A stretch of 64,000 nucleotides of DNA, taken from NCBI GenBank assembly GCA_963727445.1, contig CAVSGI010000008.1, positions 128,001 through 192,000 on the forward strand, written 5' to 3'. This DNA comes from an uncultured delta proteobacterium (GTDB lineage: Bacteria; Myxococcota_A; Polyangia; Polyangiales; B10-G4). Of the stretch, positions 3,163-58,694 are shown in pieces (position 1 is the first letter of the stretch; each line of letters begins with the position of its first letter). Below the pieces are notes generated by a model. It worked only from the letters and a program-made list of their open reading frames with translations. It was not told the DNA's origin and searched no databases. The position numbers and the translations under genes were made by a program.

Positions 3163-5854
3163 CTATCTGGAGTCCAGGAACGACACGGGATGCAGGACGC
3201 CGAGAAGTCGGCGCCAGAGCTTGATGGTGCTGCGGACCTCTCGCCGCACGGCCCGCCCGAGCTCACGCCAGCTCTTGCGGTCGAGCTCCTCGCGGCTTTC
3301 GGGGTCGGCGGCCGGATTGCCGAGCCGCGCCGCGACGTGGAGGTCCGTCATCTTGGCGAAGGAGGGCGCGACCTTCTCGACGCGCGCGGCGAAGGCTTCT
3401 CTCGTTTCGCCGAACTCTCGACTGAGCCCGACCTCCGCCAATCGGTCGAGGTACGCGCGATAGGCCACACGCGGCAGGCCCTTGTTCGAAGCGAAGAGCG
3501 GGGAGAGCCGCCGCCAGAATCTTGATCAGGTAGAGGATGGTGAGCGCGACGCCGAAGAGGATTAGCGCGATGACCCAGAGCGGCGCCGGCAGCTCGAAAG
3601 GCTCCTGGGGTGGCTCGTCCTGGATTTCGTCCTCGGGGTTCGCGGGATCCTCGCGCGCCATCTCGCCGAGCATGCGCTGCATGTCCTCGTCGAGAGGTTG
3701 CCCCGGATCGTCGAGGTTGCGCTCGGCGGCGATGTCGAGGACCACCCACCCGACGCCCTCGAGGTAGATCTCTGGCCAGGCGTGGGCATCGGCGCTGCGC
3801 ACCAGGATCGAGGAGCCGCCGCGCCGGTTCTCCTCCGGGACCATGTAGCCGGTGCCGACGCGCGCGGGCACACCCGCCGCGCGATAGAGGAAGACTGCGG
3901 TGTGCGCGAAGTGCACGCAGTAGCCGATGCGATTGCCGAAGAGGAAGTCGATGGTCGGGTCCTCCACGCCCGCGTGCCGCTCGCTGGTCGAGTAGATGAG
4001 CTCGCGGTCGAGGTAGAGCTTGGTGGCGAGGGCGCGCGCGAAGGGGTCGTCGGTGAGCGCGGGCGGGATGTCGGACTCGTCCAGGATCTGCGCGGAGAGC
4101 TCCGCGATGCGCGGGTCCGGGTGCTGCGTGAGGTAGAGCTCTCGCACCTCGTCGGACCACTCGGGGTCCCCCGCCGCGCGACCGATGAGCTCGCCGTAGC
4201 CGAGCTGCTGCGCCTGCGAGTCGAACTCGTAGGCGCGCACGAAGCGATCGGGGTTCGGGTTGTCGACGGGCCGGAAGGACGAGGGGGACTCGAGGGCGAA
4301 GGGGTGCTGGTGCTCCACCAGCATGGCGACGCGCCCGCGCACGCGGATCCGCGCATCCTCGGGCGGCCCGTGGACGGTGACGCGCCGCGCGGGGAAGTCC
4401 GAAAGGATGTCGTCGTTGGCCTCCGGGAGCTCCGCGGCGACGAGGCGCGAGCCGTTCCAGAGGCTCCAGGTCTCCTGACGGAAGTAATAGGACTGGGAGG
4501 GCGGCGAGTAGTCGTCATAGAGCACGACCACCGCCATCGGCGCCGGGTTCTGCGACGGGGTGTTGTCGTCCTGCTGCTGCTGCTGTTGCTGCTGCTGTTG
4601 TTGTTGCTGCTGTTGCTGCTGATTCTGGTTCTGGTTCTGGTTCTGGTTCTGCTGATTGGGCGGCACCCAGGCGTCCGGCATCATCGCGTCGAAGGCGCCC
4701 CCACCCGAGTCGCCGGCGTCGCTCGCGCTGCCTCCATCGAGACCGCTGTCCTCGGCCCCGCTGCTGCCGCCATCGGCGCCCGCGTCCGCACCGCCGCTCG
4801 CGCCCCCGTCGGCGCCCGCGTCCGCGCCGCCGCTCGCGCCGCCGTCCGCGCCCGCGTCCGCGCCGCCGCTCACGCCGCCGTCCGCGCCCGCGTCCGCGCC
4901 GCCGCTCACGCCGCCATCGACGCCCGCGTCCGCGCCGCCGCTCGCGCCGCCATCGCCCGCATCGGCGGCGCCGCCGCCCGCGTCGGCGCCCCCGTCGCCC
5001 TGGCCGCCCGCGCCCCCGTCGCGCCCTTCTTCTGGCCGTCCCCCGTCGGCGCCCCCGTCGTGATCCTGACTGCCGTTCGGGTTGTCCGGCGTCTCGTTCG
5101 GCGGCTCGCCCTGCTCTTCGGTGGTGAGGCCGAGCCCGTCTTCGGCCTGTGGCTGCGGCCGGCCCACGACGTCGAGACAGGCCACGGCGAGGAGCGCCAG
5201 GAGCGGCAAGCTCACAAGCGTGGACACCGTGCGCCCGCTCCTGATCTCGAGCACGAGGAGCACCGCGAGGATCACGGCGGCGGCGGCGCCGAGGCTCAGG
5301 AAGATGGTCGCGGGGTCGATCCCCTTTTGCCACGCCCAGTCGCTGATCCACAGGGGGCGCGCGATCACCCCGTCGCGGTGCGCGGCCAGGAGCGCGGCGA
5401 CCGCGACCACCACGGCGCCGAGCTCGACCCCCATCGCCGTCGGGTAGCGGGAGCCGGAGACGCGCAGCGCGCCCACCAGGGCGAACGTCCCGAAGCCCCA
5501 TCTGAGCACCGCGCTCGCGCTGAGCGCGTTCGCCGGCCCCAGCATCCCGGCGAGGGCCTCGGTGCCGGTGGTCGTCCATGCGAGGAGGAAGGCGAAGAGC
5601 CCCACGCCCACGAACGCGCCGATGGCGGCCACGAGCCGCATCCGCGAGCGGCCCAGGAGCTCGCCGAAGATCACGCCCGCGAGGGCGCCGAGGATGGCGG
5701 CCAGGACGCCGCCACTGGTGGTGACGCCCGCGGCGACCGCGGTCGCGGCCAGCGCCATGGCGATCGCGCGGAGCGGATGACGGCCGACCCGAATCAGTCG
5801 GCCGAAGATGCCGTCGTCCGGATAGCGGACTTCCTCTTCGGGGCGACGCTTCAT
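3163..5854 (-). CDS. Multi-pass membrane transglutaminase-like (TgpA-type) protein; +1 frameshift near 3519
   Basis: N-terminal TM helices and a catalytic triad GYCVHFA / AHAWPE / LDIA. The C-terminus continues in ORF 3163..3468 when GAATC at 3517-3521 is read as GATC (LIKIWRRLSPLF...). Confidence 0.85.
4560..5060 (-). repeat. Coding low-complexity repeats: about five 36-bp units encoding GGADAGADGG(A/V/S)S, then an (NQ)n and poly-Q tract
   Basis: Tandem GCCCGCGTCCGCGCCGCCGCTC-containing units at about 4770-4950; (TTCTGG)n and (CTG/TTG)n at about 4571-4655. Confidence 0.9.
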
Positions 5855-7161
5855 CGCGCCCCCATCGCCGTCTGGTGGGCCGCCGAGAAGACCTGTCCCG
5901 CCATCCGGTCGAGGACGATCACCCGAACGCGCCCGCCCCCGAGCCGGCGCACCACCTCCTGCACTTCTTCGGAGCGGGCGGGACCGACGCCGGCCTCGGG
6001 GCCTGGCGGTGGCTTCGGGGAAAAGAGCATGCGCCGAACGCGCCCGGCGCCGCCCTTCGAGCGATCCACCCCGTCGGTGCACACCACGATCTCCACGTCA
6101 CCGACGTTCATCTTCCCGAGTGAGGCCTTCACGCGATCGATCCACGGCCCGGGCCGACCCGGGACGAAGACAAGCGCGCGCCCCATGCCGCCGGGGGTCG
6201 CGGTCTGCAGGAAGTCGGCGAGGCCGGTGCCGCCGACAGGTTCCGGAGCGTCGCCCGAGCGCGACAAGAGCTCGTGAGCGGAGCGCAGATCCTCCGCGTA
6301 GCCGTCGCATCCGTCGGCCCCCAGCACCCAATCACCCCCGAGCGCCCCGGCGTCCACCGCGACCCGCGCCGCCCCCGCCGCCGGCTCGTCGTCCGGAGCC
6401 GTGACCACGTAGGCGACCGTCTGTCGACTGGGACCGATGGCGCGTTCGGGCGTGCGGATCACCACCTCGCGCGAGCGCGCGAAGACCTTCCACAGGATGA
6501 AGCGGATGGGATCGCCCGCGACGTAGTGACGCATGTCCGCGCGCTCGCCGCCGGCCGGCCCGTCCGGATGGCTGATCTGGTCACCGGCGGCGAGCGACTG
6601 GAGCACCCGCATCTGCTTGAGCCGCCCGGTCGTCGGCAGGAAGCGCAGCGTGCGCTGCTCCACCCGTTCGAAGGAGATGCGCGTGAAGCCGAAGGTGTCT
6701 CCCACTTCGAAGCGGCGACGGATCTCCTCGGCGAGCGTCCGCTTCACCGGGATGACCTCTTCGTGGATCTTCAGCCCACGCCGCGTGAGCTTCACGCGGG
6801 CGCGCGGTGAGGTCCACGCCCAGCCCACCCGCAGGAACGGGACGAACCAGGGGGCGCCGAGAACGAAGCCGGTGCGTCGCGGAAATCCGACCTCGAGGCT
6901 CAGCGTGTCCCCTGCGCTCCGCTTGCGCAGCCTCAGGGACAGGACGATGGCCCCGGCGATCGTGAGCACGAGCGACACCGCGACCAGACCGACGGAGACG
7001 AGGCCCACGACCAACAGGACGAGATCGATCCGTCCGTAGCCGTAGTAGAAGAGCGCGAGAGAGCCGAGGGCCGCCACCAGCACGCCGAGCGGCGTCAGCG
7101 GGAAGAGATCCCGGATGAGGCGGAGCCACGGCAGCACCTTGTCGCGGAGTCGTCTCATCAC
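5851..7161 (-). CDS. DUF58-domain membrane protein (MoxR-associated)
   Basis: MRHYVAGDPIRFILWKVFAR matches the DUF58 R.Y..GD....I.WK..AR motif. It has two N-terminal TM helices and overlaps the next gene by 4 bp. Confidence 0.9.
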   Translation of the reverse strand: MMRRLRDKVLPWLRLIRDLFPLTPLGVLVAALGSLALFYYGYGRIDLVLLVVGLVSVGLVAVSLVLTIAGAIVLSLRLRKRSAGDTLSLEVGFPRRTGFVLGAPWFVPFLRVGWAWTSPRARVKLTRRGLKIHEEVIPVKRTLAEEIRRRFEVGDTFGFTRISFERVEQRTLRFLPTTGRLKQMRVLQSLAAGDQISHPDGPAGGERADMRHYVAGDPIRFILWKVFARSREVVIRTPERAIGPSRQTVAYVVTAPDDEPAAGAARVAVDAGALGGDWVLGADGCDGYAEDLRSAHELLSRSGDAPEPVGGTGLADFLQTATPGGMGRALVFVPGRPGPWIDRVKASLGKMNVGDVEIVVCTDGVDRSKGGAGRVRRMLFSPKPPPGPEAGVGPARSEEVQEVVRRLGGGRVRVIVLDRMAGQVFSAAHQTAMGAR

Positions 7162-7165
7162 CGGC

Positions 7166-7816
7166 TCAGAAGAGGGAACAGCCCCGGTGGGTGTCTGGAT
7201 AGAACGGCGGCGGCGTGCTCACCACGTGCGGCGACGGCGGCGCGTCGAGGCAGCGCACACGACGGAAGACCGTGGGATCGTCGACCGCGCGACCACCATC
7301 GTTGTTGACGGACTGGAACTCGAAGATCTCCGGGTCCACCACGCCGGAGAAGTTGTCGAGGTTGTAGCCACCCGGCCCCCAGTTGCAGATCACCTGGTCC
7401 AGTCTCCACTGGCCCACACCGCCGAAGAAGATCCGGCCGTCGGGCGAGATGGTTCCCCGCGCGTCCATCGACACGATCCACTCGCCGCGGCCCGCGCTGC
7501 AGGGCTGCGGCTCCTCGTCCTGGGGGCCCGCATCCCAGCTGTGATTGATGATCGTGCCGACGAGCTCGGAGTCGTTGTCCTCGCTACGGCGGATGTTGAG
7601 CATGAAGATGGTCCAGTCGCCGTAACGCTCGTCGTACTGGTGACTCTTCCACACGCCACTGATCGGGTCCTCGCAACCCTCCGCCGGCGGCGGCAGGCGG
7701 TCGCGCTGTTCCTGGATCGTGGCCGGCGCGCGCGCAGGCACGAAGACGATGGCGAGGAAGCCTCCCGCCACGATCACCCATAGAACAAAGCGCCTTCGCT
7801 TCTGTTTCGCCCCCAC
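7166..7816 (-). CDS. Hypothetical exported protein with several Cys
   Basis: Signal-like RRRFVLWVIVAGGFLAIVFVPARAPA, then a globular domain. GTG start at 7816 is inferred. Confidence 0.7.
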   Translation of the reverse strand: MGAKQKRRRFVLWVIVAGGFLAIVFVPARAPATIQEQRDRLPPPAEGCEDPISGVWKSHQYDERYGDWTIFMLNIRRSEDNDSELVGTIINHSWDAGPQDEEPQPCSAGRGEWIVSMDARGTISPDGRIFFGGVGQWRLDQVICNWGPGGYNLDNFSGVVDPEIFEFQSVNNDGGRAVDDPTVFRRVRCLDAPPSPHVVSTPPPFYPDTHRGCSLF

Positions 7817-7841
7817 GCGCCTCCGAAACGGGCCGCCCCGA

Positions 7842-8279
7842 TCACTCCCCGATGAAGAACTGAGCCACGATGGCCACGACGATGAGCCCGAGAATGACGG
7901 CCACGAAGTAGAGCCCTCCGGACTCCGAGACGTTCTCTCCGTCGGGGCTCGGAATGTTGGCGTCGACCACCACCGGGTCTCCCCCACGCCGCTGCTTGCG
8001 CCGGCCGCGCCCCTTGGGCGCCTTCTTCGGCTTCTTGTCGGAAGACTCGGCTGGCGCAGCCGCCGCCTCCTCCTCCTCGTCGTCCTCGGCCGGCTCCTCG
8101 GAGGACTCCTCCGGCGCTTCGTCGTCGCCGCCGCTCTCGTCGTCCTCGGACGACGCGTCCTCGTCCTCGTCCTCGTCCTGGGCCTCGGCCTCCTCGCCGC
8201 GAGGCGCCTTGCTCTCCGCGACCGCCGCGGCCGAGCGCTTGTGACCCTTCTTCTTGGATCTCGATTTCTTCTTGGCCAT
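7842..8279 (-). CDS. Small hypothetical protein with a basic N-terminus, acidic tract and C-terminal TM helix
   Basis: MAKKKSRSKKKGHKRS...EDEDEDED...GLYFVAVILGLIVVAIVAQFFIGE. Confidence 0.7.
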   Translation of the reverse strand: MAKKKSRSKKKGHKRSAAAVAESKAPRGEEAEAQDEDEDEDASSEDDESGGDDEAPEESSEEPAEDDEEEEAAAAPAESSDKKPKKAPKGRGRRKQRRGGDPVVVDANIPSPDGENVSESGGLYFVAVILGLIVVAIVAQFFIGE

Positions 8280-8389
8280 TTCCGAAGCGATCCATACCAC
8301 GGAGCGGGGGCCACCGGGGTTCGTACGCGCCTGTTTTCGCGCGATCATCCGCTCGAAATCCCACGGCAGGAGGACTAGTCTCCCGCGCC

Positions 8390-8785
8390 ATGGTCGAGAT
8401 TCTGAACCCGGAAACACTGGCTCCCCCGCGGGGGTACAGCAACGGCGTGGCGCTGGGCCCTGGCCGCATTCTCTTCGTGGCGGGCCAGATCGGCTGGGAT
8501 CGCCGAGGAAAGCTGGTCTCGAGCGAGCTGACGGCTCAGTTTCGTCAGGCGCTTCGCAACGTGGTGGACGTGGTCGAAGCCGGCGGCGGTCGGCCCGAGG
8601 ACATCGGACGGCTCACGATCTACGTGACGGACAAGCAGCGCTACATCGCCGAGGGGAAGTCCATCGGCAACGAGTACCGGACGATCATGGGGAAGCACTT
8701 CCCCGCGATGGCCCTGGTTCAGGTCGCCGACCTCCTCGAGGAAGGCGCGCTCGTAGAGATCGAAGCCACGGCGGTGCTGACGTGA
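8390..8785 (+). CDS. Rid (YjgF/YER057c/UK114) family protein
   Basis: PRGYSNG, LFVAGQIG, FPAMALVQV, LVEIEATA. Confidence 0.9.
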   Translation: MVEILNPETLAPPRGYSNGVALGPGRILFVAGQIGWDRRGKLVSSELTAQFRQALRNVVDVVEAGGGRPEDIGRLTIYVTDKQRYIAEGKSIGNEYRTIMGKHFPAMALVQVADLLEEGALVEIEATAVLT

Positions 8786-10754: not shown

Positions 10755-11909
10755 GCTGGCTCGACGCGCCGAAGCTGGGTCCCCTGGGCGTGGCTACGCG
10801 TGCGCTCGACCCGGATCTGCGCGAAGGGGCCGACGGGCTCCGCCAGCTGCTGGCGCTCGTCGAAGCGCACTGCGAAACCGAAGAGATCGACGAGGACGCA
10901 GATCGGCGCTTCGTCGAAGGGGCAGGCGCGGCGCTCGGCGCGTTGCTCATCACCCACGTCGGCGACGCCGCTCACGTCGAGCGCGACGGGATGCACCGGC
11001 TGCGCCTCGGTCGCTTCGGTTTCTTCGATCCCTTCGCTGCGATGGAGGCCGTCCTCGACGCTCCCGACCCGCAGCGCGCGCTCGCCGAAGCGGTGCGAGC
11101 GGCCGAAGCGGAGGCGAGCGGCGCGGGCCCCCTGTCGCGGGTGATGGTCAGCCTGGCCGACGCGCTCGAGCGGCGCCGCCCTCCCCTCGCCGTCCGCGAG
11201 CACTTCGAGCGCTACGTGAAGCTCTCGGACGAGACCGAGCTCGAATCTCTCGCGTGTGGTCGACGCCACCCGGGATGGGACGAGCGCGGACGTGGCGCGC
11301 TCGGTGGACAAGCTCCTGAGCTTCCTCGGCGAAGACAGACGCACGGTCGCCTGGGGAGACGCGCGCACGCGCCTCTTGCCGCGCCTGTTGCCGCCGAGCT
11401 TCGAAGCCTCGCTCCCCGACGACTCCCCGCGCCGCGGCACCCTCGCCACACGCCCGGTCTGGCAGGACGTGCGCGTCGCGTTGATCCTCGGCTACGAAGG
11501 CCGCTCGCGCTTCGTCCGCGAAGACGAGCTCGAGGACTGGGCGCAATCCTTCGACGACTGTCTGACGGTCGCCGTCGCCAACCTCGCCGCGCGCTCGACC
11601 ACCGCGCGCTTCGCGCGGATCGAGACCGAGGCGGGCCCGTTGGTGGTAGCGCGCACCGGCGACGGCCTCGACGCCGCACGCCTGTTGCTCCCCGGCCTCC
11701 ACGATGTCCTGTCCGCCGAGCTCGGCTCGCCCTTCCTCGCCTCGGTGCCGCATCGCGACACGCTCCTCGCCGGCCCCACATCACCCGAGGCGCTGGTTCA
11801 GGCGCTCCGGCACAAGACCGCGGACGACGCGGCGCGCGCCCCTCACCGCATCAGCGACGCGCTCTTCCTCGTGAGCCCCGAAGGGCTCAGCGTCGCTGCA
11901 GAATCCTGA
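10751..11909 (+). CDS. Hypothetical protein with a C-terminal DUF1444-like domain; +1 frameshift near 11244
   Basis: The frames join when GAATC at 11243-11247 is read as GATC (ETELDLSRVVDAT). The C-terminal DGLDAARLLLP...ASVPHRDTL resembles DUF1444. Confidence 0.65.
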
Positions 11910-13476: not shown

Positions 13477-13498
13477 CGAGGGGGCCGAGAGACCAGTG

Positions 13499-15880: not shown

Positions 15881-16047
15881 TGGAAGTATACAGTGAGGCG
15901 CCGTGCACTTGCCACTGCTGTGCAGCCACAATGCATCGAAGTTTCAATGGCCTGCGCCGACACGGCCATGGGATCTGTGCTCGCCCACGTAGATCCACCC
16001 ACATCGACCGACGTCACGCCCACCAACGTACTTGAGCGACGATCTCG

Positions 16048-28424: not shown

Positions 28425-29388
28425 TCACTCGCGCGACGTGATCTGCTCGGCGATCCCGCGGATGGTGAGCGGGCTCGAATCCCTCGGCCTTGTTGTTCGC
28501 GATCACGTAGGTCTCGATGCCGCGCTCCCCCGCTTCGCGAATCAGCCGCGTGACATCGTCACGCATGTCCTGTCGAACCTCGTGGATCCGATCGAAGGGC
28601 GCATAGGCCTCCTTCATCTCCTCGTACTTGCGCCCCGGCGGGATCATCAGACGGGCGACCGCGAAGGGACCGACGAGCGCACCCTCGCGGTCGAGCTGCT
28701 CGCCAATCGTGGGCATGCGCGACCAGAAGTTGAAGAGATGGGTCGCGCCGCGCCGCGCGAGGATCTCGAGGTAGCTCGGCGACAGGAGCCGGCGATCCCG
28801 GAGCTCCACGGCGATTCGGAAGTCCGGCCCGACGTCTGCGAGGAACGCGTCGAGGGCGCGCTCGAAGGCCTGCCGATCGAAGGGCCCGGCGTCGGGCGGG
28901 ATCTCCAGGATGAAAGGCCCGAGGTGCTCGCCGAGCCCGGCCACGGCGGAGGCCGCCTGCGCCTCGAGAAAGAGCGTCGCGTCGAGAAAGTCGGGGTTGG
29001 GCTTGCCAGCCCGCTCCCCGTAGCGCTCGAGCTTCGGAAAGTAGCGGGTGGCGACGCGCGACCATACCTTCGACAGCAGCACGAAACCTTCCGGTAGCTG
29101 CTCCGCGTACGCCCGCAGCTCCTCCTCCGACACCGGCGCGTAGTAGCTGCGATCGACGCCGGCACAGCCGAAGAGCGGATACTTGGCGTACTCGCGGAGA
29201 GATTCGCGGGTGAAGGCCTTCTGGCTCGGATAAGCGCGGCGATAGACGAGCCCCTTCCAGCCTTCGAAGGTCCAGCTGCTGGTCCCGAAGCGCACGTGCG
29301 ACGGCAGCGCGTCGGCGAGGCGCGCGAGCGCGGGATCCGGGGGCGGGCCGCCCTCGTCGCCCTTGAAGAGGCCGAGTTGATCGCTCAT
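28425..29388 (-). CDS. DUF72-domain protein; +1 frameshift near 28479
   Basis: [23 protein letters not shown]. Reading GAATC at 28477-28481 as GATC gives NNKAEGSSPLTI...SRE*. Confidence 0.88.
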
Positions 29389-33765: not shown

Positions 33766-35125
33766 TCAGCGCTGAGGGGCGAAGACGAAGGGGTAGCTGA
33801 AGTCGACGCTGCCGCCGACGGGACCGGAGCGGAAGCGCATGCGGTCGATGATCCCGCCCACGCACTGGGCGAGGGGCGCGCTGCCTGTGGTGTTCAGAAC
33901 GGTCGTCACGTTGGTCACCGTGCCCGACTCCAGGATGGTGAACTTGGTCGTCACCTTCCCCGCGAGGGTCGGATCGTGGCGGAGCTCGGTCTCGTAGCAG
34001 CGGCGGATACCCGCCATGTAGGAGCGAACGCGCGCGGTCACGACGCGCCCGTCGAGCTCGCCCGAGCCGCCCTCGTCGAGGGGCCGCTCGGGACGCACCC
34101 AGGCGGTGATGACCCGCTCGTCGATCGGCGCCGTCGCGATCGCCTCGTGACCATGGTGCGCGATGGAGATGGCGCCGATCCCGGTGCCGCTCGGCGTTCC
34201 GCTGGCGCCGCCCCGCTCGTGTAGGACGTCATCGGCGCTCGCGCTGCTCGACGCCGCGTCCACCGTCGCCAGGATCCCCGCCGCGTCCGAGACAACCGCC
34301 CCGTCGACCAGGCGGTCCAGAGACGTGGGAACGCCGTCCGACGAAAGGAGCGTCCCGATCTCGAGGAGCGCCGCGGTGCGGATTCTGCTCTGCGTCGGCG
34401 ATGGTCGGCCGTTCGTCGCTGCTGGGCCGCGCATGGCCGTGCGACGGCTCCGCCGGCGTGTCGTTCGCATCGGCGACCTGATCGCTGGGCGCGTCCGCGC
34501 TGTCGCCATCGAGGGCCTCGGGCACTACCGGCTCGGGCGGCGGCTCGGGCTCTTGGAGCAGGAGCGTCGCGAACTCGTCGGGCAGGATCGCCACCGACTG
34601 GGGCATCGGGAAGTCGGCGCTCTCGAGGAAGACCATGAAGGAGAGGAACGCGACGAAGGACATCGTGACGAAGCCTGTGAAGCGCCAATCGATGGAGCGG
34701 ACGAAGCCGCCGCGCACCGCCGCGGGGAGCTGCGGCTTGGGCATCGCCGGCGGCGCATGCACCATCTGCAGGAGCACCACCGTGTCGCCGACGACGACCT
34801 TGCCCCGGGCCTGATCGTCGAGCGCGATCTTCTTCACGCCCTGTCGCACGGCCGCCTCGAGGTCGCGCATCCCGTCCGCGCCGCTGACCCGGCCCGTCAT
34901 ATCCGGCCGCAGGTGCAGCCAGATCCGCCCATCCGGCGCCGGCGAGAAGAGCACACCCCGGGTCACGGGAAGGACGAGATCGCATCGCTCGTCGGGCCCG
35001 ATGGTGATCTTTTCGCGCTCGCGCACCAGGCGCTCGGAGACGATTCGCCCCTGCTCCACCACGCCCAGGCGGAGAACGCGGGCCGCGCCCTTCGTCGTGC
35101 GCGCGGCGCGCATCGCCATGGTCAT
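33766..35125 (-). CDS. AgmX/PglI-C-terminal (TonB-C-like, GltG-type) membrane protein; +1 frameshift near 34383
   Basis: N-terminal VLRLGVVEQGRIVSERLV, a single TM, a Pro-rich linker, and C-terminal IRRCYETELR..P.LAGKV...YPFVF. The frames join at GATTC 34381-34385. Confidence 0.8.
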
Positions 35126-35225: not shown

Positions 35226-36636
35226 TCAGGCCACGTTCTCGGCCTCGGCCCGCTGCCGGGTGCGCTCCGCCAGGAGCGGGAGAACGTAGGGAAAACCGAC
35301 CGATAGCGTGTCCAGGTCGGGATCGATCTGGCCGACCAGCCAGAAGGCGAGGACGCTCGCGCGCTCGACGTAGAACCAACCATCCGGGTAGTGGATGGAG
35401 CGCATGAGCTCGCGCAGCTCGGCGCGGGCGACCTCGGGGTCGGCGAGCTCCTCCAGCTCCTCGCGCCGCGCACGCATCAGCGCGCCCGCGGTCCGGTCCT
35501 CGACCGCGAGGAGCTTTCGGAAATAGGTCAGCACGGTGCGCTCGACGAGAGCGCGATTCCCCGACTCGGCCACGAAGCCGATGTTGTCGAAGCCGCGGAG
35601 CACCAGCGCGTCGTTCTGCTCGAAGAAGCCCTGAAGCACGTCGACCATGCCGTCGATCATCGAGTCCGAAACCTCGCTGATGGCGCCGAAGTCGAGGATG
35701 ACCAGGCGGAAGGCGCCCTCGCTCCTCCCCCGGGTCGATCAGGAAGTTCCCCGGGTGGGGATCGGCGTGGAAGAAGCGGTGCACGAAGAGCTGCTCGTAG
35801 AAGGACTCGGTGAGCCGCGTCGCCACGTCGCGGCGCGCGATCCCCAGACGGTCCATCTCCTCCAGATCGGTGATCTTGAATCCCTCCATGAAGGTCATGG
35901 TCAGGACCTCACCGGTGCTGAGCTCGTCGATGACGTCGGGGATGGCGATGTCCGGCTGCCCCTCGAAGTTCTCCTTCATCCGGCGCATGCACGCGGCTTC
36001 GTGCACGTAGTCGGTCTCCCGCCGCAACAGATCGACCAGCGCGTCGTAGACGGAGGCGATGTTGTCGATGGGCATGAACCACTCGTAGACCCGAAGGGCC
36101 AGACGAATGACCCGCATGTCGGTGCGGATGACGCCCCGGATGCCCGGATAGAGGAACTTCACCGCCACGTGCGTTCCGTCGTCGAGCCAGGCCTCGTGTA
36201 CCTGCCCCAGAGACGCGGCTGCCAGCGGCGCGTGCTCGATCTTCGAGAAGCGCTCGTCGGGCTCGGCGTCGAAGCTCGCGCGGAAGCGCTCCTCGAGCGC
36301 GGAGTAAGGCATCGGCGGCACCGCGTCCTGCAGCACCTTGAGCTTCTCGCCGTACACGTGCGGCAGGAACCCGCCCATGATCGACAGCACCTGACCGAGC
36401 TTGATGTAGACGCCGCGCAACCGAAGGATCGCGTCGAGGAGCCGGTCGGCGTTCTTGTCGTCCACCTCGCGGCCGCGCCGCTCGAGCCCGGGCGGGACGA
36501 TGATGTCCTCCTCGCCGGTGACGGGATCATCCACGTGGGCGCGGAAGAGCCACGTGAGCGCGAGCTGCGTCATGTAGCTCGAAAAGATGATCCCGAAGAC
36601 CCACAGGGCCCTCGCCAGCCGGACGTAGAGCTCCAT
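35226..36636 (-). CDS. ABC1/UbiB/AarF-family atypical kinase; +1 frameshift near 35725
   Basis: YIKLGQ, LQD, AAASLGQVH, VAVK, HADPHPGN; LDFG follows in the next frame after a G-run (C-run on the + strand). Confidence 0.9.
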
Positions 36637-42134: not shown

Positions 42135-45100
42135 TCAGTCGCGGCCGTGGCAGAGCCACACGTAGCCGCAGGCGATCGCGCGGCACTCCGGCTCCGGGCG
42201 CCCCTGTTCGAACCCACTCTGCCGCGCTTCGAGGAGCGCCTCGCCGAGCGCCGGCAGCCTCTCGGAGACGTCGGGCGCGGTCGCCACGACGGGCAGCCGC
42301 GCCTTTCCATCGAGGAACTGGATCAGGGGCTTCACCGGCACTTCCCCGCCGGTCCGGCGCCGCACCGCCTCCCGATACGCGGCGAGCTGAAACTGATGCG
42401 GCGCGGTGGGATCGGAGCCGCGCGGCGAGGTGACCTTGTAGTCGACCAGCTCGATCTCGTCGCCGCGATCGACGAGGAGATCGATCTGCCCTTCGATCAC
42501 GAGGGTCGCCGGGCCCGCGTCGACGGCCAGGCTGAAGGGGAGCTCGCGCGAGAGGCGTTCGGGCTCGAGCTCGCCGAGGCCGCGCGCATAGTCGCCGGAG
42601 ACGAAGGGCGACAGGCGCCCGACCAGATCGGTGCTCGCCGGCGCGCCCGCGGCGTCCATGGCGCGGGCGAGGGCCTTCGCCGGCTCGTCCTTCGCCCGGC
42701 GGAAGTCGATCCGCTCGAGCACCGCGTGCGCGAGGGTGCCGCGCCGCCGTGGATCGCTCGCCACGTCCCCGTCGATCTCGGGCGAAGGAGGCGTACGCGG
42801 CTCGGGGAACTCCGGGAGCCGGAGGATGTTCCGCGCCCGAAAGCGCCGCGGACAGAGCGCGAAGTCCTCGAGCTGAGTGACGGGCACCTCGAGGAGCGCG
42901 ATCGCGGGCCGCGCCGGGCGCGCGCGTCGCAACGAGGCTTCGAGCGCCTCGGCCGCCGGAAGCGGTGGCGCTTTGGCCTCGCCGGCGGCCCAGCCCTCCT
43001 CCCCCAACGACACCTCGCGGAGCAGCCCGGCCGAAGCGAGCGCCTCCCGCTCGGCGAGCACCACCTCGTTCAGGATGCTCCCTCGCTTCTCGACGCCGGC
43101 GAGGATCAGCCGGTCCCGCGCGCGCGTGGTCTGCACGTAGAAGAGGCGCATGCGCTCTGCGCGCTCGCGCCGCTCGCGGATCGCGTGCACCCGTTCGTGG
43201 TGTGGGCCGTAGAGCCATTGTCCCCACGGCGCCCGGACCCCGATCGCCAGCCCCGCCTCGGGATGGCGGTCGTGCTCGATCGGCCGGCCCTGAACCTTCA
43301 GCTGGCGCCCGAGATCCGCCGCCACCACGATCGGAAACTGCAAGCCCTTCGACTGGTGCACCGTCATCACCCGGATGACGTCCGCACCCTCGGTGGCGAC
43401 GTCGGCCTCGCGATCGGCGTCGTTCACCGAGCGCTTCGCGAGCTCGTGGAGCACCGCCCTGCCGTCTTCACCCCGGCGCTCGCGGTCGGCGATCTCCCCG
43501 ACGATGCGGTCGACGTTCGCCATCCGCTGCCGGCCCGAAGGCAGCCCGCCGAGGATCGCGGCGTAGCCCGTGCGCTCGAGCGCGACGCTCAGCGCCTCGG
43601 AGAGCCCGATGCGGTCGACGCTCTCGCGGAGCCGGCGAAGGAGGGTTGCCGACCGCACGTAGCGCTCGGCCTCTTCGGCGTCCGGTACCACCGACCCCGG
43701 CGGCGGGCTCGACAGCAGCGTCCTCAGGCCCCCCTCGCTCGCGCGCGTGAGGGCCACCAGGGCGTCGTCCGACAGGCCCACCATCGGCCCGCGCAGGACG
43801 GCGGCGAGGCCGCGCCCGTCGTCCTCGGCCGCGACCACCCGGGCCAGCGACAGAACGTCCCGCGCCTCGACCGTCGACAACAGCCCGCGGCCCTTGATCA
43901 CCACATAGGGCAGGCCGACCTCCTCGAAGGCGCGGAGGAACGCATCGACGTGGGTGAAGCGCGGCAACAGGAGCGCGACGTCCGAGGGCCGGGCGGCGCG
44001 CACCGTCCCGTCCGTCTCGTCGCGCACCACGTGGCTCCCGCTCGAGAGCACGGTGGCGAGATGCCGCGCGATGGCTGTCGCTTCGTCGACCGCAGTGCCC
44101 GTTTCGAGCGCGATGAGCTCGGTCGCCGGCTCCTCGCAGAATCGCTTCGTGCACGTGGTCGAGGGCCTCGGCCTCGTCGAAGCCATGCTCGAAATCCGAA
44201 GCCACCGAATCCGCTGTCTCGCCGGGCACGGACTCCCGCGCCCCTTCGGTGTCCTCGTCCTTTCGCTGAAGGCTCGCCCTCGCGAGGTGATTGAGCGCCT
44301 CGACCAGGGGCGCGACGCTGCGGAAGCTGCGCCCGAGGGACAGCTCCATCCCCCCGTGCGCGACCACGTCGGCCGCGACCGCTTCGAAGACGGCGACATC
44401 GGCGTTGCGAAAGCCGTAGATCGACTGCTTGCGGTCACCGACCACGAAGAGCCCTCGCGACTCGAGCTGACTCGCGCGCGGGACGCCCCGCCCCACCCCG
44501 CCCCGCGCGTGCAGGAGATAGACCAGGTCGCGCTGCACCGCGTTCGTGTCCTGGAACTCGTCGACGAGGAGCGCGTCGATCCCCGCCGTGAGCTCTCGGC
44601 GGAGCTCGGGTTGCGACGCCAGGAGATCGCGCGCGCGCCGGCCGAGATCGGCGAAATCGAGGACGCCCAGGCGCTCCTTTTCGCGACGATAGCGCCGCTC
44701 AATCTCGCCCACGAGGGAGACCAGTGCCTCGGCGCGGGCGCGGCGCCGCGGAAGTGCCCAGAGCTCGAGGGCGGCGTCGCGCACCTCCTGCCCGTCCGGG
44801 ATCTTCCAGGCCGAGCTCTTGTTCCCGCTGTCCGTGCGGAGCGCGAGAATCGAGACGGCGCACGGCGCTCTGGAGCGCGTCGTCGTCGTCCGTGCCGAAG
44901 AAGGGCTCCTCGCGCAGCGCCTGGGCCACCGCGACCGCTTCGGCGAGACGCTCCCGCGTCTGTTTGCGAAGCCCGGGCTGCGAAGCGATGCGCTCGTGGA
45001 CCCCGACGAGCGTCTCGAAGGCGCGCCCCACCTTGCCGAGGCGTGCATCGGCCGGGGTGACACCCGCGACGCGACATGCCGCGGAGAGCGCGTAGTCGTA

Positions 45101-49050: not shown

Positions 49051-49161
49051 GGGAGCAGTGCCTTATCACGTGCAAGACGGGCGGGAAGGCCCCGGACTGA
49101 CAGGCCCCGAAAATGCTTCGTCTTGTAGCCCAGCCGGCTTTCGCGCTATAGGGAGGCCACC

Positions 49162-49419: not shown

Positions 49420-49429
49420 AGCCGCGACG

Positions 49430-50869: not shown

Positions 50870-50943
50870 CGCGGCGGAGCGACCGGAGCACCCCTCCGAC
50901 GCGGGTTGGCCGGGGCGCTCGCCGGGACTACCCTTCGCCCGCC

Positions 50944-52275: not shown

Positions 52276-53868
52276 ACGAAGGGCGCGAGCGTAGTCACTG
52301 GGGCTGGGGCTGGGCCGACAAGTGGCTCGCGCGCGACGCGCGCGTGGCGATGGGCGCGCAGGTGGGCGCCATGCTGGGCTTCGAAGGGCTGACGCCAGAG
52401 GAGCCGGTAGCGCTCGCGGAGGTGGAGCTCGCGGCGCCGCGGGTGAGCGCGCCAGACATCGGAGTGTCGATCAGCGAGGCGAAGGCGGCGCGCGTTCGTC
52501 ACACCTACGGCAAGAGCTACCGCGACCTGGTGCGCGGCTTTTCGGGAGACTTCGGGCCTGCGCCGGATTCTGGTCGCGCTGCCCGAGAGCGAGGAGGAGG
52601 TCGCGCGCGTCCTCGAGTGGGCGAGCGAGCGGCGCGTGGCGGTGATCCCCTTCGGCGGCGGGACCAGCGTTGTCGGGGGAGTGGAGGCACAGCTCGAAGG
52701 CGACTACGCGGGCGCGCTGAGCCTGGACCTGACGCGCCTCGACCGCGTGCTCGAGATCGAAGAGCGCTCGCTGTCGGCGCGCATTCAGGCGGGCGCCAGC
52801 GGGCCGCGGCTCGAAAAGCAGCTCGCCGAGCGCGGGCTCACGCTGCGCTTCTTCCCGCAATCCTTCGAGCACTCGACCCTCGGCGGTTGGATTGCGACGC
52901 GCGCGGGGGGCCACTTCGCCACGGCCTACACCCACGTCGACGACCTGACGCTCTCGACGCGGATGCTCACGCCGCGCGGGGTGATGGAGTCGCGCCGACT
53001 ACCGAGCTCGGGCGCGGGTCCGAGCCCAGACCGCATGGTGCTCGGTTCCGAGGGGACGCTGGGCGTCATCACCGAAGCGTGGATGCAGGTGCGGCCGCGG
53101 CCGACTTTTCGCGCGACCGCGAGCGTGCGCTTCGACGACTACTCGAGGGCGGTGGATGCGGTTCGTGCGCTCGCGCAGTCGGGCCTGCAGCCGTCGAACT
53201 GCCGACTTCTCGACAGCCGCGAAGCCGCGCTGAACTTCGTCGCCAACGACGGATCGTCGGTGTTGGTGATCGGCTTCGAGTCGGCCGACCACCCGCTCGA
53301 GGCGTGGATGGAGCGAGCCCTCGTGCTGGCGAAGGATCACGGCGGTGTGTGTCCAAAGGGCGCGACCTATCGCAGCGCGGGTGCGAAGGCAGACGGTGGC
53401 GCCGCAAGCACCTGGAAGCAGGCCTTCATCGAGGCGCCCTACCTACAGAACACGATGGTCAGCCTCGGCGTGATCGCCGACACCTTCGAGACCGCAATTC
53501 CCTGGGATCGCTTCGAGGAGCTCCACACCGCCGTGATCCGAAACGTGCGCGACGCGATGAAGCGCGCTTGCGGCAAGGGCACCATCAGCTGTCGCTTCAC
53601 CCACGTCTACCCCTCGGGCCCCGCCCCGTACTACACCTTCCTCGCCCCCGCGAAGCGCGGCGCCGAGCTCGAGCAGTGGGCCGAGATCAAGAAGGCCGCG
53701 AGCGACACCCTCCTCGCCCACGGCGCCACCATCACCCATCACCACGCCATCGGCCGCACCCACCGCCCCTGGTACGGCCAACAACGCCCCGCCCTCTTCG
53801 CCCAAGCCCTCGCCGCCGCCAAACACACCCTGGACCCCGCCGCCATCCTCAACCCCGGCTGCCTCTGA
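52272..53868 (+). CDS. FAD-linked oxidase, alkyl-DHAP-synthase-like; +1 frameshift near 52568
   Basis: [52 protein letters not shown]. The frames join at GATTC 52566-52570. Confidence 0.88.
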
Positions 53869-53869
53869 C

Positions 53870-53963
53870 GGGGACGGTCTACACTTTTCAACTTTCTCGC
53901 CGACCGCGGGGCCGACCCCGCTGGCTGCAAGCGGACAGAAGTTGAAAAGTCTAGACCGTCCCC
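53870..53963. repeat. REPIN-like inverted pair from the same 27-bp family
   Basis: An exact core at 53870-53896 and an inverted copy with 3 mismatches at 53937-53963, separated by a 40-bp spacer. Confidence 0.92.
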
Positions 53964-54226
53964 TGAGCGCCGAGGGCTTGTTGGAGGCGGTCTTTGGTGG
54001 GGCGGCTGAGGTTGACGAGGCGGAGGCGGACGGTGAAGCGGGCGTCGTCGCGCTTCTTGCTTTGGATGGTGCGGCCCTCGAGGGAGAGGGAGGCGTCGTC
54101 GATGAGCGCTTCGAAGCGGATGGGCTGACCGGGGGCGAAGGCCTTGGGGGAGATGACCTCGAGGCGTTCGCCATCGAGGGCCACGACTTCCCCTTCGCCG
54201 CCGTCGAAGCGCGCGACGACGCTCAC
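53951..54226 (-). CDS. Small PilZ-like/hypothetical protein
   Basis: A 91-aa beta-rich ORF overlapping the smpB stop (GTGA). The PilZ resemblance is weak. Confidence 0.6.
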   Translation of the reverse strand: MSVVARFDGGEGEVVALDGERLEVISPKAFAPGQPIRFEALIDDASLSLEGRTIQSKKRDDARFTVRLRLVNLSRPTKDRLQQALGAQGTV

Positions 54227-54714
54227 CGCTTCCCCCGACCGCGACCCATCGCGCGCCTCGCCTCGTCGAGCGCGGCCTTGCGCTTGAGGTCCTCGCGCCG
54301 GTCGCCTACGTCCTTGCCCTTCGCGAGCCCGAGCTCGACCTTCGCCCAGCCGTCCTTGAAGTAGACGCGCAGCGGGATCAGCGTGAAGCCGCGCACCGAG
54401 AGCTTGCCCTCGAGACGCTCGAGCTCGTGCTTCTTCACGAGCAGCTTTCGCTTGTCCTTCTCCTCGTGCCCGAAGACTCCCGCCTGCTCGTAGGGCCCGA
54501 TGAACATCTTGTTGAGCCAGAGCTCCCCCCGTTCGAGGCTCGCGTAGGCCCCCTCGAGGTCCGCGCGCTTGGCCCGAAGCGACTTCACCTCCGAGCCCTT
54601 GAGCACCATCCCGGCCTCGAGGCGCTCCTGGATGTCGTAGCGCTTCGACGCCTTGCGGTTCGTACAGACGAGGAGCTCGCCCGGCACGTCGTTCTTCTTG
54701 CTCTTCTTACCCAC
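54223..54714 (-). CDS. smpB: SsrA-binding protein SmpB
   Basis: NRKA, EAGMVLKGSEVKSLR, RKLLV, GLAKGK..DRRE. Confidence 0.96.
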   Translation of the reverse strand: MGKKSKKNDVPGELLVCTNRKASKRYDIQERLEAGMVLKGSEVKSLRAKRADLEGAYASLERGELWLNKMFIGPYEQAGVFGHEEKDKRKLLVKKHELERLEGKLSVRGFTLIPLRVYFKDGWAKVELGLAKGKDVGDRREDLKRKAALDEARRAMGRGRGKR

Positions 54715-54732
54715 GGCGGAGCCGACCGGACC

Positions 54733-54897
54733 AGGGGGTGTCCCCCGTCTTCGGACCGAGAAGCCCGGGTAGATCGTGGTTTGCGGGGCGGTTCCCCGGC
54801 GACGAAGCGATGCCGAGTATCGGGCAGGAGCTGGGGGACGGACCGCGAGCCGCGAGATGCCTGGGATTCGACGGGAGCAAAACTGGGGACACCCCCT
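54733..54897. repeat. Second inverted-repeat pair (AGGGGGTGTCCCC ... GGGGACACCCCCT)
   Basis: Perfect 13-bp inverted repeats at 54733-54745 and 54885-54897, extendable with mismatches. Confidence 0.7.
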
Positions 54898-55801
54898 AAT
54901 CCTGTCCCGCCTCCGAGTCAACGTCCTGTCCGAGCTCCGGCTCCGGCCAGCCCCCGGCGATGTGCGCGCGCGCCGCCGCCACCCCGCGCGCCTGCGCCTC
55001 GCTCAGCACCAGCCCCGAAAGCGCCTCGTCGAAGGCCCGCACCTGCCGATTCGTCGACAATCCCCGCTCGCGCGCCATCGCCGCCAGCTCCACCGCTGCC
55101 CGATACGCTCCCTCCACGTCGAGCCCACGACGCGCCGCCACGAGCTCCTCCCGCACCCGCGCCTCCTCCGCGGCCCAATACGCTCCGTACGCGCTCGGTG
55201 ACGCCGGGCTGTACCCCGGCGGCCGCCGCGCGAGCAGCGCCGCCACCGTCGGCGTCCGTCCCCGCGACAGCGCGTAGAGCCGCACCCGCGTCACCAACTC
55301 CGGCTCCCCGTCCCCGTCGACGTCCACCACCTCCTCGACGCACGCGTCCACCCCGAAGCGCCCGAGCTCGAGCGGCACCTGAGTGACGCGCCCATCCGAC
55401 TCCACCCGCAAGAGCACCAGACACGTTCGCTCCTGCGCGGGATCCGCGCGCGCCACGATCAGCGCGTCGACGCCCTCCGCACGTCGCAGCGAGATCGCTT
55501 GCGCCACCTCCGTCTCCGGCACCTCCAGCGCCGCGGCGATCCCGCGCTCGGTGATCACCCGGATCGCGGTCCGTCCGTCATCAGGTCGCCGCGCATCGAA
55601 GGCGACCCAGCCCTCCCCTTCGAGCTCCTCACCGATCGTCCAGCCGCTCTCCGCGAGCCCAGCCCGGACCTCTGCCGCCTCAGTCCGCGGATCGACGCCC
55701 GCGCGAAAGGTCGCGATGTCGTGCGCGATCGCCGCGTTCTGCGCCTCGCCTCCGCAACCGAGCACGAGCGACAAGAGCATGGTCCACGAGGCCCGGTGCA
55801 C
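54896..55801 (-). CDS. Hypothetical lipoprotein
   Basis: LLSLVLGC lipobox and a DVDGDGEPEL Ca-binding-like motif. Confidence 0.65.
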   Translation of the reverse strand: MHRASWTMLLSLVLGCGGEAQNAAIAHDIATFRAGVDPRTEAAEVRAGLAESGWTIGEELEGEGWVAFDARRPDDGRTAIRVITERGIAAALEVPETEVAQAISLRRAEGVDALIVARADPAQERTCLVLLRVESDGRVTQVPLELGRFGVDACVEEVVDVDGDGEPELVTRVRLYALSRGRTPTVAALLARRPPGYSPASPSAYGAYWAAEEARVREELVAARRGLDVEGAYRAAVELAAMARERGLSTNRQVRAFDEALSGLVLSEAQARGVAAARAHIAGGWPEPELGQDVDSEAGQD

Positions 55802-55819
55802 GGCCGACAGTAGAGCACA

Positions 55820-56447
55820 TCAAGCGGCCGGCGCCCGCGCGAGCGTCAACGTCCGCACCTCCGCCCCCGCCTCCCGCAGGACCCGCGCCGCCTCCGCCAA
55901 CGTCGCCCCCGTGGTCCGCACGTCGTCCACCAGCAGCACCCGCCCCCCCACCGCGCGCCGGAGCCGAAACGCCCCGCGCACGTTGTCCTTGCGTGCGTCG
56001 GCGTCGAGCCCCACCTGCGGCCGCGTCGGCCGCACCCGCGAGAGCCGTCCCGCCACGAGCGGAACCCCCAGCGCCCGCGAAAGCGGCCGCGCCAGAAGCG
56101 CCGCCTGATTGAAGCCGCGCGACGCGAGGCGCGCGCGATGGAGCGGCACCGGCACCACCACGTCGACGAGCCCGCCGTACGCTGGCGCCGCCGCGACCAT
56201 CCGCTCCGAGAGCGCCGGCAACAGATCCAGCCGGCCGTCGTACTTCAGGCGTCGGATCGCGTCCGCCAGCGGGCCCGCGAAGACGTGCAGGCTCGCGCCC
56301 CGCGCCGGCGGACGCACCCCCTGTGGCGCATGGTCGACGAGGATCCCGCACCCACCACAGAAACCCTCCTCGTCCCCGACCAGCACCTCGTCACACGCCG
56401 CACAGCGATGAGGCGCGATCGAGATCGAGGAGCCCCTCGAAGACCAT
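55820..56447 (-). CDS. comF: ComF-family phosphoribosyltransferase-like protein; +1 frameshift near 56421
   Basis: MVFEGLLDL/IAPHRCAACD...CGGC zinc ribbon, VPVPLH, RGFNQA, LLVDDVRTTGATL. Confidence 0.88.
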
Positions 56448-56496
56448 CCGCGGCGAGAGCACCCCCCGTTATCGGCGCCGCCCGCCCCGAGTTGCG

Positions 56497-56949
56497 TCAG
56501 TGGTCGTAGGGCTCGCCACGCAGGATGGAAAACGCCCGGTAGAGCTGCTCCACCACGAAGAGCCGGCAGAGCCGATGCGGCAGCGTCATCTTCGACAGGC
56601 TCAGGCGCAGGTCCGCCGCTTTGCTCGTCTCCTTCGGCAGCCCGTACGCCCCGCCGATCAACAAGCAGAGCTCCGAGACGCCCTCCCCCTCGCAGCGCCC
56701 GACGTATTCCGCGAGCCCCGCGCTCGACAGCGCCTTGCCTTCGACCTCGAGCGCCACCACCCGGCTCCGCTCACCGATGGCCTTTTCGAAGCGCGCGCGC
56801 ACCTCGTCCTCGCTCCCATCCTTGAGCTCGACCTCTTCGAAGCGCGCGTGCCGCCCGATGCGCTTTTCGTAGTCGTCGATCGCCTCGCGGATGCCGCGCT
56901 CCTTCACGCGACCCACCGCGATCACGCGCACCCGCAGAGACCCGGCCAC
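56497..56949 (-). CDS. rlmH: 23S rRNA (pseudouridine1915-N3)-methyltransferase
   Basis: IAVGR, LIGGAYGL, LSLSKMTLPH, EQLYRAFSIL.GEPY. Confidence 0.95.
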   Translation of the reverse strand: MAGSLRVRVIAVGRVKERGIREAIDDYEKRIGRHARFEEVELKDGSEDEVRARFEKAIGERSRVVALEVEGKALSSAGLAEYVGRCEGEGVSELCLLIGGAYGLPKETSKAADLRLSLSKMTLPHRLCRLFVVEQLYRAFSILRGEPYDH

Positions 56950-56963
56950 GCCTCAGCTCACGC

Positions 56964-57401
56964 TCACGCGGAGCGCTGCTCTTCTTCTTCGAAGTTCACG
57001 CGCGCGGCGTCGATCCACAGCGACTCGAGGTCGTAGTAGCCGCGCGTGTCCTGATGGAAGATGTGAACGATCGCTTCGCCGAAGTCCATGAGCACCCACG
57101 TGCCCTGCGGAAGACCTTCGACGCCGAGGGCATGCACCCCGTGCGCCTTCTTCATGTCTTCCTCGATCCCCTTCGCGATGGCGTTCACCTGACGGTCGCT
57201 CCGACCGCTCATCACCACCACGTAGTCCGCGTAGTCGACCTTGCCGCGCACGTCGATGATCTCGACGTTGAGCGCTTTCTTGTCGAGGCCCGCGCCCGCG
57301 ATCGCGAGCGCCAGCCCCTGGCCCGAAAGCTCGGGTGCGTCCTTGTTGCCCCCCTTCGGCTTCTTCTTGGTCTTGGACTTCCCGGCTTTGGCTTTGGTCA
57401 A
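56964..57401 (-). CDS. rsfS: Ribosome silencing factor
   Basis: DKKA, DYVVVMSG.S.RQV.AI, WVLMDFG..IVHIF, R.YYDLE.LW. TTG start is inferred. Confidence 0.93.
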   Translation of the reverse strand: MTKAKAGKSKTKKKPKGGNKDAPELSGQGLALAIAGAGLDKKALNVEIIDVRGKVDYADYVVVMSGRSDRQVNAIAKGIEEDMKKAHGVHALGVEGLPQGTWVLMDFGEAIVHIFHQDTRGYYDLESLWIDAARVNFEEEEQRSA

Positions 57402-57415
57402 ATGCGATCTCCCAT

Positions 57416-58694
57416 CTAGGAACCACCCCTGGTCTGCCCACTGCCGTAGGCAACCCACTTCTCTGCACAGAGCTCCTCGAGGCCCATCGGGCCGTACGCG
57501 TGGAGCTTCGTGGTCGATATCCCGATCTCGGCGCCGAGCCCCAGCTCCCCGCCGTCGTTGAAACGCGTCGAGGCGTTGGCCAGCACCAGGCTCGCGTCGA
57601 CTTCGCGCACGAAGCGCCGCGCCTTGTCGTAGCTCGAGGTCACGATGGCTTCGGTGTGATTCGAGCCGTGCTTCGCGATGTGTTCGAGTGCGCCTTCGAT
57701 ACCGTCGACGATACCGACGGAAAGGATCAGGTCCAAGTACTCAGTGTCCCAATCCTCCTCGGTCGCCTCGGCGCAATCCGGGGTCAGCGCCCGGACCCGA
57801 ACATCGCCTCGTAGGCTCACACCCTTGTCGCGCAAGGCCGCCACCACACGTGGCACGAATTCTGCGGCGCAGGCCTCGTCCACCAGGAGCGTCTCCATCG
57901 CGTTGCACACCCCGGGCCGGTGCGTCTTGGCATCGAGAGCGATCGCCACCGCCCGGTCGAGGTCCGCGTCCCCGTCGACGTAGACGTGGCAGACCCCTTT
58001 GTAGTGCTGGATCACCGGCACCCGTGCGTTGTCCGCCACGAAGCGAATCAGCGACTCACCGCCGCGCGGGATGATCAGGTCGACGATCCCCTCGAGGCCG
58101 ATCATCACAAGCGTCGCTTCCCGATCCGTCGTCGGCAGCAGCGTCACCGACGCCGCCGGCAGCCCCTCGGCCTCGAGCGCCGCGCTGAAGACCTGCGCGA
58201 TGGCCTGGTTGCTCCGGAACGCTTCCTTGCCGCCGCGGAGCAGCGTCGCGTTGCCGCTCTTCAGGCAGAGCGCCGCCGCGTCGGCGGTCACGTTCGGGCG
58301 CGACTCGTAGATGATGCCGATCACGCCGAGGGGCACCTTCATCCGGCCGACCGAGAGGCCGCTCTCGAGGGTGCGCATCTCGCGCACCCTGCCCACCGGG
58401 TCGTCGAGTCGCGCCACGTGCTCCACCGCGTCGGCGACTGCATCGAGGCGCTCCGAGGTGAGCGTCAATCGAATCAATCATCGCCTTCGACAGGCCGTCC
58501 TTCACCGCCGCTTCGACGTCGCTCTCGTTGGCGTCGAGGATGGTCGGCTTCGCCTCGCCGCGGAGCGTCGCCGCCACCCGCCTGAGCACCGCGTTCTTCC
58601 GCGCCGGCGTGAGGCTCCCGAGCACCCGTGACGCGGCCTTCGCCTCGCTGGCCAGCGTCGTCACCTGACGCCGGATGTCCGAACTCTCGCTCAC
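57416..58694 (-). CDS. proA: Gamma-glutamyl phosphate reductase; +1 frameshift near 58473
   Basis: VPLGVIGIIYESRPNVT, GVCNAMETLL, NASTRFNDG, EIGISTTKLHAYGP. The frames join at GAATC 58471-58475 (MIDRLTLT). Confidence 0.95.

Follow-up and report, generated by a model that had tools for sequence, protein, structure and literature searches.

Frameshifted genes in the window

The DNA analysed here (the window; 64,000 nucleotides, G000:C8:128001-192000) belongs to the genome G000 of an uncultured myxobacterium, which comprises 9.47 Mb in 27 contigs with a GC content of ~69%. Its assembled sequence shows a series of genes interrupted by one-base insertions, largely at the palindrome GATC, which then reads GAATC or GATTC (jointly GAWTC). 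These insertions and their relation to a Dam-family adenine methylase gene of the same genome are the subject of this report. The small number of large contigs at a moderate completeness (85.6%, a value which bounds every gene-absence result in G000) suggests that G000 is a long-read metagenome assembly.

Frameshifts were called with a hidden Markov model (HMM) of coding sequence containing frameshift transitions, which was self-trained on G000 and blind to any motif. When challenged with 1500 random spiked-in insertions, the model recovered 1380 and placed 1175 within 10 nt of their true position. In the window it returned 10 calls, every one a +1 shift, seven of which have a GAWTC site within 5 nt. 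The window holds 511 GATC and only 54 GAWTC, so that a random site would fall within 10 nt of a GAWTC with a chance of about 2%. The features are as follows (strands refer to the window).

3517..3521, motif on plus, gene on minus: GAATC with an extra base in a transglutaminase/DUF4129 gene matched by Pfam in pieces; HMM +1 at 3518
11243..11247, motif and gene on plus: GAATC with an extra base in a gene without assigned function; HMM +1 at 11245
28477..28481, motif on plus, gene on minus: DUF72 gene with GAATC and an extra base close to its 3' end; HMM +1 at 28473
34381..34385, GATTC on plus (GAATC on minus), gene on minus: extra base in a gene whose C-terminal domain is of the AgmX/PglI/GltG type; HMM +1 at 34382
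44139..44143, motif on plus, gene on minus: GAATC with an extra base in a helicase-nuclease gene resembling addA/recB and matched by AddA in pieces; HMM +1 at 44140
44847..44851, motif on plus: the addA-like gene again, GAATC with a second extra base; HMM +1 at 44849
52566..52570, GATTC on plus (GAATC on minus), gene on plus: extra base in an FAD-linked oxidase gene; HMM +1 at 52554
58471..58475, motif on plus, gene on minus: GAATC with an extra base in proA; HMM +1 at 58476
56417..56426, motif on plus, gene on minus: GATC-GA-GATC (GAGATC class, see below) with an extra base in comF; recognized from the sequence and from ComF matching the downstream frame
35715..35735, minus: +1 shift beside a G-run in an ABC1 kinase gene, not at GAWTC; HMM +1 at 35721
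61355..61400, plus: pilD (prepilin peptidase), +1 shift in a 3'-terminal tract of hexamer repeats, without link to GATC; HMM +1 at 61377

The eight GAATC/GATTC breaks listed in a first-pass annotation of the window were thus all found again, each within 12 nt of its motif, and the +1 direction reported there for all shifts was reproduced by the ten calls and, for comF, is supported by the sequence and the profile match. The comF shift, placed correctly by that annotation between two GATC sites, escaped the HMM because the 5' piece of the gene comprises just 9 codons. The ABC1 kinase and pilD had rightly been set apart as cases without GAWTC.

The UvrD-helicase profile is distributed over two pieces at 44847, the two pieces of proA span profile positions 7-67 and 70-417, and the DUF72 match at 28477 ends at profile position 205 of 217. 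At 52566 the HMM call lies 12 nt upstream of the motif and FAD_binding_4 starts immediately after it. The downstream piece at 34381 is matched by the NCBIfam profile myxo_SS_tail; the former label "GltG-like" has its basis in the C-terminal domain only. The label "DUF1444-like" for the gene at 11243 found no Pfam match and was not confirmed. The ABC1 match reaches profile position 202 of 244, and in pilD the A24 domains lie upstream of the repeat tract. Similar hexamer tracts of the GGGAAC/GGGAGC type attract frameshift calls elsewhere in G000 too (C10:1170824, C27:258205).

Homologue alignments, available as a check on the proposed positions of the shifts, place one extra base in the motif at three of the ten sites: the same-genus homologues are one base shorter at 3517 and 11243, and four relatives are one base shorter at the proA motif (58471). 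Six of the ten sites are without usable alignment and 35721 is ambiguous.

Frameshifts at GATC across the genome

Over the whole of G000 the model called 1402 +1 and 491 -1 shifts, of which 1162 and 363, respectively, are confident in the sense of having at least 150 coding bases on either side. Of these, 200 of the 1162 +1 shifts versus 4 of the 363 -1 shifts have a GAWTC no more than 6 nt away, at a background of 0.72%, and the enrichment for which the first-pass annotation had proposed a test is thereby established. Within 10 nt the number rises to 241 of 1162, with 183 at offsets -2 to 0. The further statement that almost every frameshift falls at GATC describes the window but not the genome, as this fraction indicates; with six such shifts under strict criteria, compared to a mean of 1.67, the window shares the highest count among 135 windows. 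The sites are evenly distributed (coefficient of variation of the spacing 1.01) and found on most contigs. That the doubled base is the adenine of GATC on one strand was also correctly noted, but this is true of any GAWTC by construction and is not independent evidence.

The affected sites amount to 0.48% of 50,489 scoreable coding GATC. K-mer counts by themselves display no GAWTC excess (observed/expected 0.96), because 6561 coding GAWTC are without shift and genuine copies swamp the errors by about 27 to 1. The flanking sequence has a strong influence: written in the GAATC orientation, the 5' neighbour is A in 154 of the 241 sites and T in 3, with 43 expected for each, and the error falls from A to C or G. 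The rate is graded by context, reaching 5-8% in the worst 9-mers, and the flanking bases predict the error at a GATC with a cross-validated area under the curve (AUC) of 0.84. Recognition of a longer site, for instance RGATCY, was ruled out by these graded rates and by AGATCG, which is affected 59 times. Among 4- to 7-mers no motif is comparably enriched beyond words containing or derived from the GATC palindrome; CAATC, GAATG, GACTC and GAGTC are not enriched at shifts, and the enrichments of CAAG and CGCAG dwindled against spike-in backgrounds. The word GACCGAC retains a small excess near shifts (7 vs 0.8).

Most shifts of G000 outside the GAWTC class are concentrated in 107 noisy blocks, 2-12 kb long and 243 kb in total, which have an indel every few hundred bases (e.g. 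C15:86864-89273 and C20:629707-636938) and account for 559 +1 and 222 -1 shifts. GAWTC is found at 5 of these 559 +1 shifts, with 8.5 expected, and its density is not raised near the blocks; low coverage as the cause of the GAWTC shifts was ruled out by this flat rate together with the missing enrichment inside the blocks. The 603 +1 shifts beyond the blocks include 236 at GAWTC. The remaining 367 reveal a second class, in that 53 have a GAGATC or GATCTC within 12 nt (8.2 expected), and 121 have a GATC (60.6 expected). GATC accordingly accounts for about half of the out-of-block +1 shifts, and comF is a member of the GAGATC class.

Insertions in the blocks were further characterized by alignment to the same-genus genome G001. 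They comprise 54 synonymous two-letter pairs, 4 duplications, 29 of neither type and 24 ambiguous cases, whereas random insertions yielded 562, 288, 446 and 289, respectively. Among the unambiguous ones, duplications are therefore rare (4/87 vs 288/1296 in the null) and synonymous pairs frequent (54/87 vs 562/1296); C/G constitutes 49 of 80 two-letter pairs. The blocks are probably collapsed strain variation, and where reads disagree, probably as a result of strain mixture, the consensus seems to write both alleles serially. Genes in the blocks resemble decayed pseudogenes but are probably not.

Independent sequence and related genomes

An independent view of one site is provided by the public run X1, which contains part of the stretch, although with a small word share (0.10). 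A contig of 220 nt from this run spans 44051-44271 with 97% identity; apart from six other letters, it differs by one absent base at 44140, within the first addA motif.

The same-genus genome G001 (590 contigs; 1.56 of 7.1 Mb scanned) possesses the same Dam and is clean. Its scanned coding DNA (1.34 Mb with 6717 GATC) shows one +1 and eight -1 shifts, none of them at GAWTC, where about 32 GAWTC shifts would be expected at the rate of G000. Aligned directly, G000 differs from G001 by at least 218 single-base +1 and at least 53 -1 differences; at least 17 of the former are at GAWTC, at least 22 near GATC and at least 179 elsewhere. The signature reappears in G023 and G002, two few-contig relatives from other families, of which 200 kb each were scanned with several HMM models. 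Depending on the model, GAWTC accounts for 13/36, 11/35 or 6/31 +1 shifts in G023 (0.63 by chance) and for 12/47, 13/46 or 11/36 in G002 (0.42 by chance). In G037 and G031 the single +1 shift of each is at GAWTC. The signature thus tracks assembly style and not kinship, and it accompanies noisy, insertion-rich assemblies. The extra bases are most likely artefacts and not part of the DNA.

Dam and other modification genes

G000 encodes an intact Dam-family protein of 300 amino acids (C4:221978-222877, L031) without internal stops, as was to be sought according to the first-pass annotation. It matches TIGR00571 over the full length with 290.6 bits (cut-off 114.85), and its best matches in the PDB are DpnM (2dpm, E 8e-66) and E. 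coli Dam (2g1p, E 7e-44). The DPPY motif and the target-recognition segment are conserved in an alignment with both; we take the former to be the catalytic segment and the latter to be the one that reads GATC, and the specificity for GATC is predicted on the basis of this homology. Compared to the known Dam/DpnM family, the protein agrees in its full-length match, in both segments and in being apparently an orphan like E. coli Dam; it differs by its occurrence in a myxobacterial order, is nearer DpnM than E. coli Dam and falls short of the enterobacterial equivalog (181 of 441 bits).

The sequences nearest to this Dam are labelled Deltaproteobacteria, Myxococcota, Polyangiales and the like, in line, as is the AgmX/PglI tail at 34381, with a myxobacterial origin of G000. 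A search of 61 genomes of the order detected relatives in 55 (E up to 1e-30), mostly with 55-79% identity; the same search found none in the five genomes of family f16, and a Dam-family search of four f16 genomes plus G048 found none either. No publication on the orphan Dam of this order was found in the literature searched. The open reading frames (ORFs) around the gene were judged by eye to be ABC-ATPase-like, aminotransferase-like or without assigned function; an aminotransferase-like gene stands beside Dam in 3 of 7 related loci compared. A second Dam copy (C11:17488-17895, L033) is 5'-truncated, 89% identical to the intact gene at the DNA level and located beside ORFs that look transposase-like by eye. 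As to the frequency of the site itself, GATC has an observed/expected ratio of 0.78-0.96 in eight of nine genomes with Dam (G036 1.08) and of 1.02-1.09 in all three without, in small samples of 12 genomes whose kin are not independent.

Searches for partners and for other modification systems in G000, 85.6% complete, did not find a DpnII-type nuclease (PF04556), a C5 cytosine methyltransferase (PF00145, Sau3AI type), DndB, DndC, DndD or DpdA (NF041059), and the search for DndE was uninformative. Two PAPS-reductase matches turned out to be CysD and CysH. CTAG is strongly depleted in G000 (observed/expected 0.19), though no C5 methylase was found.

Strand asymmetry

On the coding strand the affected sites read GATTC in 156 and GAATC in 85 cases, so that the template strand has the doubled A about twice as often as the coding strand. 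The bias persists when sites with identical bases at four flanking positions are compared (odds ratio 1.97, p 3e-7), and a logistic model likewise retains it (p 2e-6); once dinucleotide terms were added, the likelihood ratio of that model could not be interpreted. Detection bias was ruled out as its source by spike-ins, as 249 of 300 GAATC and 264 of 300 GATTC insertions were placed within 10 nt. In the relatives, the strand lean is 5 to 1 in the same direction in G023 and absent in G002 (6 to 5). The asymmetry may originate from a learned sequence prior in the software, which is the dull option, or from strand-biased methylation, which is the interesting one.

Origin of the extra bases

Very probably, the extra bases are long-read consensus errors due to predicted Dam methylation of GATC to N6-methyladenine (6mA). 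The systematic long-read error at a modified GATC, already favoured in the first-pass annotation, is supported by the genome-wide enrichment, the X1 contig, the clean G001, the positive G023 and G002 and the intact Dam gene; methylation, platform and read-level mechanism are inferred. Among the modifications listed there, 6mA is likely on account of Dam, while machinery for 5-methylcytosine and phosphorothioate was not found.

Mechanistically, Dam would methylate both adenines of GATC at nearly all sites, and the long-read signal would be disturbed around the mark, giving rise to an error only in contexts that render the signal ambiguous (0.48% of sites and up to ~5-8% for the worst 9-mers). 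When the methylated strand is read, the G adjacent to the methylated A might be miscalled as A, whereas reads of the opposite strand would keep the G; the consensus would then put both letters in series, yielding GAATC, or GAGATC if the order or the purine differs. A G/A disagreement written serially would produce both GAATC and GAGATC, matching the two observed classes as well as the behaviour of the blocks, but we regard this two-allele step as an even bet. An alternative read-level route could be a stutter of the polymerase opposite 6mA in PacBio reads. Such a stutter would yield GAATC and not readily GAGATC.

Related errors are known from R10 nanopore data, for which three reports describe a strand-specific G/A ambiguity tied to methylated motifs (PMC11610603, PMC11610573, bioRxiv 10.64898/2026.01.14.699587), with G-to-A as the most elevated error within methylated motif units (bioRxiv 10.64898/2026.01.14.699587). 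Only part of the copies of a motif, GATC included, is affected according to a further article (PMC12392509), and native-versus-amplified comparisons link such errors to methylation (PMC11610573, bioRxiv 10.64898/2026.01.14.699587). As far as these sources go, the published errors share with those of G000 the clustering at a motif which is methylated or, in G000, predicted to be so, the restriction to some copies, the purine ambiguity and the persistence into the consensus; they are mainly substitutions, whereas G000 exhibits a one-base insertion which shifts the frame. The indels of long-read metagenomes addressed by proovframe (bioRxiv 10.1101/2021.08.23.457338) are similarly small, break gene calls and concern low-abundance members; in contrast to them, one class in G000 is motif-specific, evenly spread and distinct from the noisy blocks. 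Neither long-read errors linked to a motif nor Dam are new in themselves, but titles and abstract openings revealed no publication in which GATC is read as GAATC or GATTC; subscription journals or supplements may hold one.

Several observations weigh against an origin in Dam methylation and consensus error, or against parts of it. The twofold template-strand bias is left unexplained by nearby context or detection. The support from X1 consists of a single contig of depth 2.8 from a related strain at one site. Three genomes carry Dam without the signature, namely G014 (0 of 6-7 +1 shifts), G036 (0 of 1-2) and G047 (0 of 0). The Dam-negative controls G048, G057 and G032 (232 kb scanned) contain few shifts, with GAWTC at 0/3 or 1/2 in the deletion-dominated G048, 0/0 in G057 and 0/1 in G032; they are too small, and their error styles seem to differ. 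G000 contains three more genes resembling N6/N4 type II methylases (C8:492304-493086, C5:78446-79162 and C13:236218-236424), to which no second error motif could be matched. With regard to the read-level step, the synonymous excess in the blocks is modest among non-duplications (54/83 vs 56%), and codon use shows no plain G-to-A excess, a weak test at a rate of 1%: ATT makes up 3.9-4.7% after G vs 3.6-4.1% after other bases, and CAA before ATC 3.7% vs 5.5%.

The three further methylase-like genes, together with the ~14% of the genome that is missing, would also fit an artefact caused by a mark other than plain Dam 6mA, such as N4-methylcytosine, a phosphorothioate at G-A or a modified guanine. 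The GAGATC class, which locates the disturbance at or before the G, and the low share of affected sites (0.48%), which could mean partial modification, point in the same direction. Such a mark is nevertheless improbable in view of the intact GATC-type Dam, the failure to find DndB, DndC, DndD, DpdA or a C5 methylase (with DndE uninformative), and the smooth dependence on the flanks (AUC 0.84), which is the behaviour of a signal context. Somewhat less probable still is a weakness of the basecaller or polisher at AGATC and neighbouring words independent of methylation. It would account for the strong flank effect with A preceding the motif in 154 of 241 cases, and the Dam-negative samples compared are small and not matched for pipeline; however, only words of the Dam palindrome stand out while CAATC, GAATG, GACTC and GAGTC do not, and published native-versus-amplified work attributes such motif errors to methylation.

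Finally, the insertions might be real products of a site-specific mutational process, for instance a blunt GA^TC cut repaired by a one-base addition, as suggested in the first-pass annotation. The precise motif and the invariable +1 event are compatible with this idea, and the context-matched twofold template-strand bias could stem from a transcription-linked process. It would, however, require ~240-300 fresh breaks among ~7900 genes, including a double hit in one addA, and the frames downstream are long and still open. The 97%-identical contig lacks the base, G001 with the same Dam is clean, and the signature occurs in unrelated families, tied to noisy insertion-rich assemblies. A DpnII-type nuclease was not found, and a blunt-cut model does not yield GAGATC. 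The cut-and-repair model is not supported, and real mutation is very improbable.

Implications

If the insertions are consensus errors at methylated GATC, ~240-300 genes of G000 (~3-4%) appear broken solely through a motif-specific error, and two relatives are affected likewise. Before a pseudogene or a pathway gap is accepted in such an assembly, the break should be inspected for GAATC, GATTC or GAGATC. Conversely, the signature offers a cheap hint of GATC methylation where raw signal is not public.

The one biological lead is the orphan Dam conserved in the order. The predicted enzyme is probably active throughout the order, which by itself would be of modest interest. A more far-reaching scenario, unlikely at present, is that a vertically inherited orphan Dam constitutes a Dam-like regulatory system outside the Gammaproteobacteria across a mostly uncultured myxobacterial order; its marks would then be readable from nothing but the frameshift spectra of public assemblies, and the template-strand excess would reflect a transcription-linked asymmetry of methylation.

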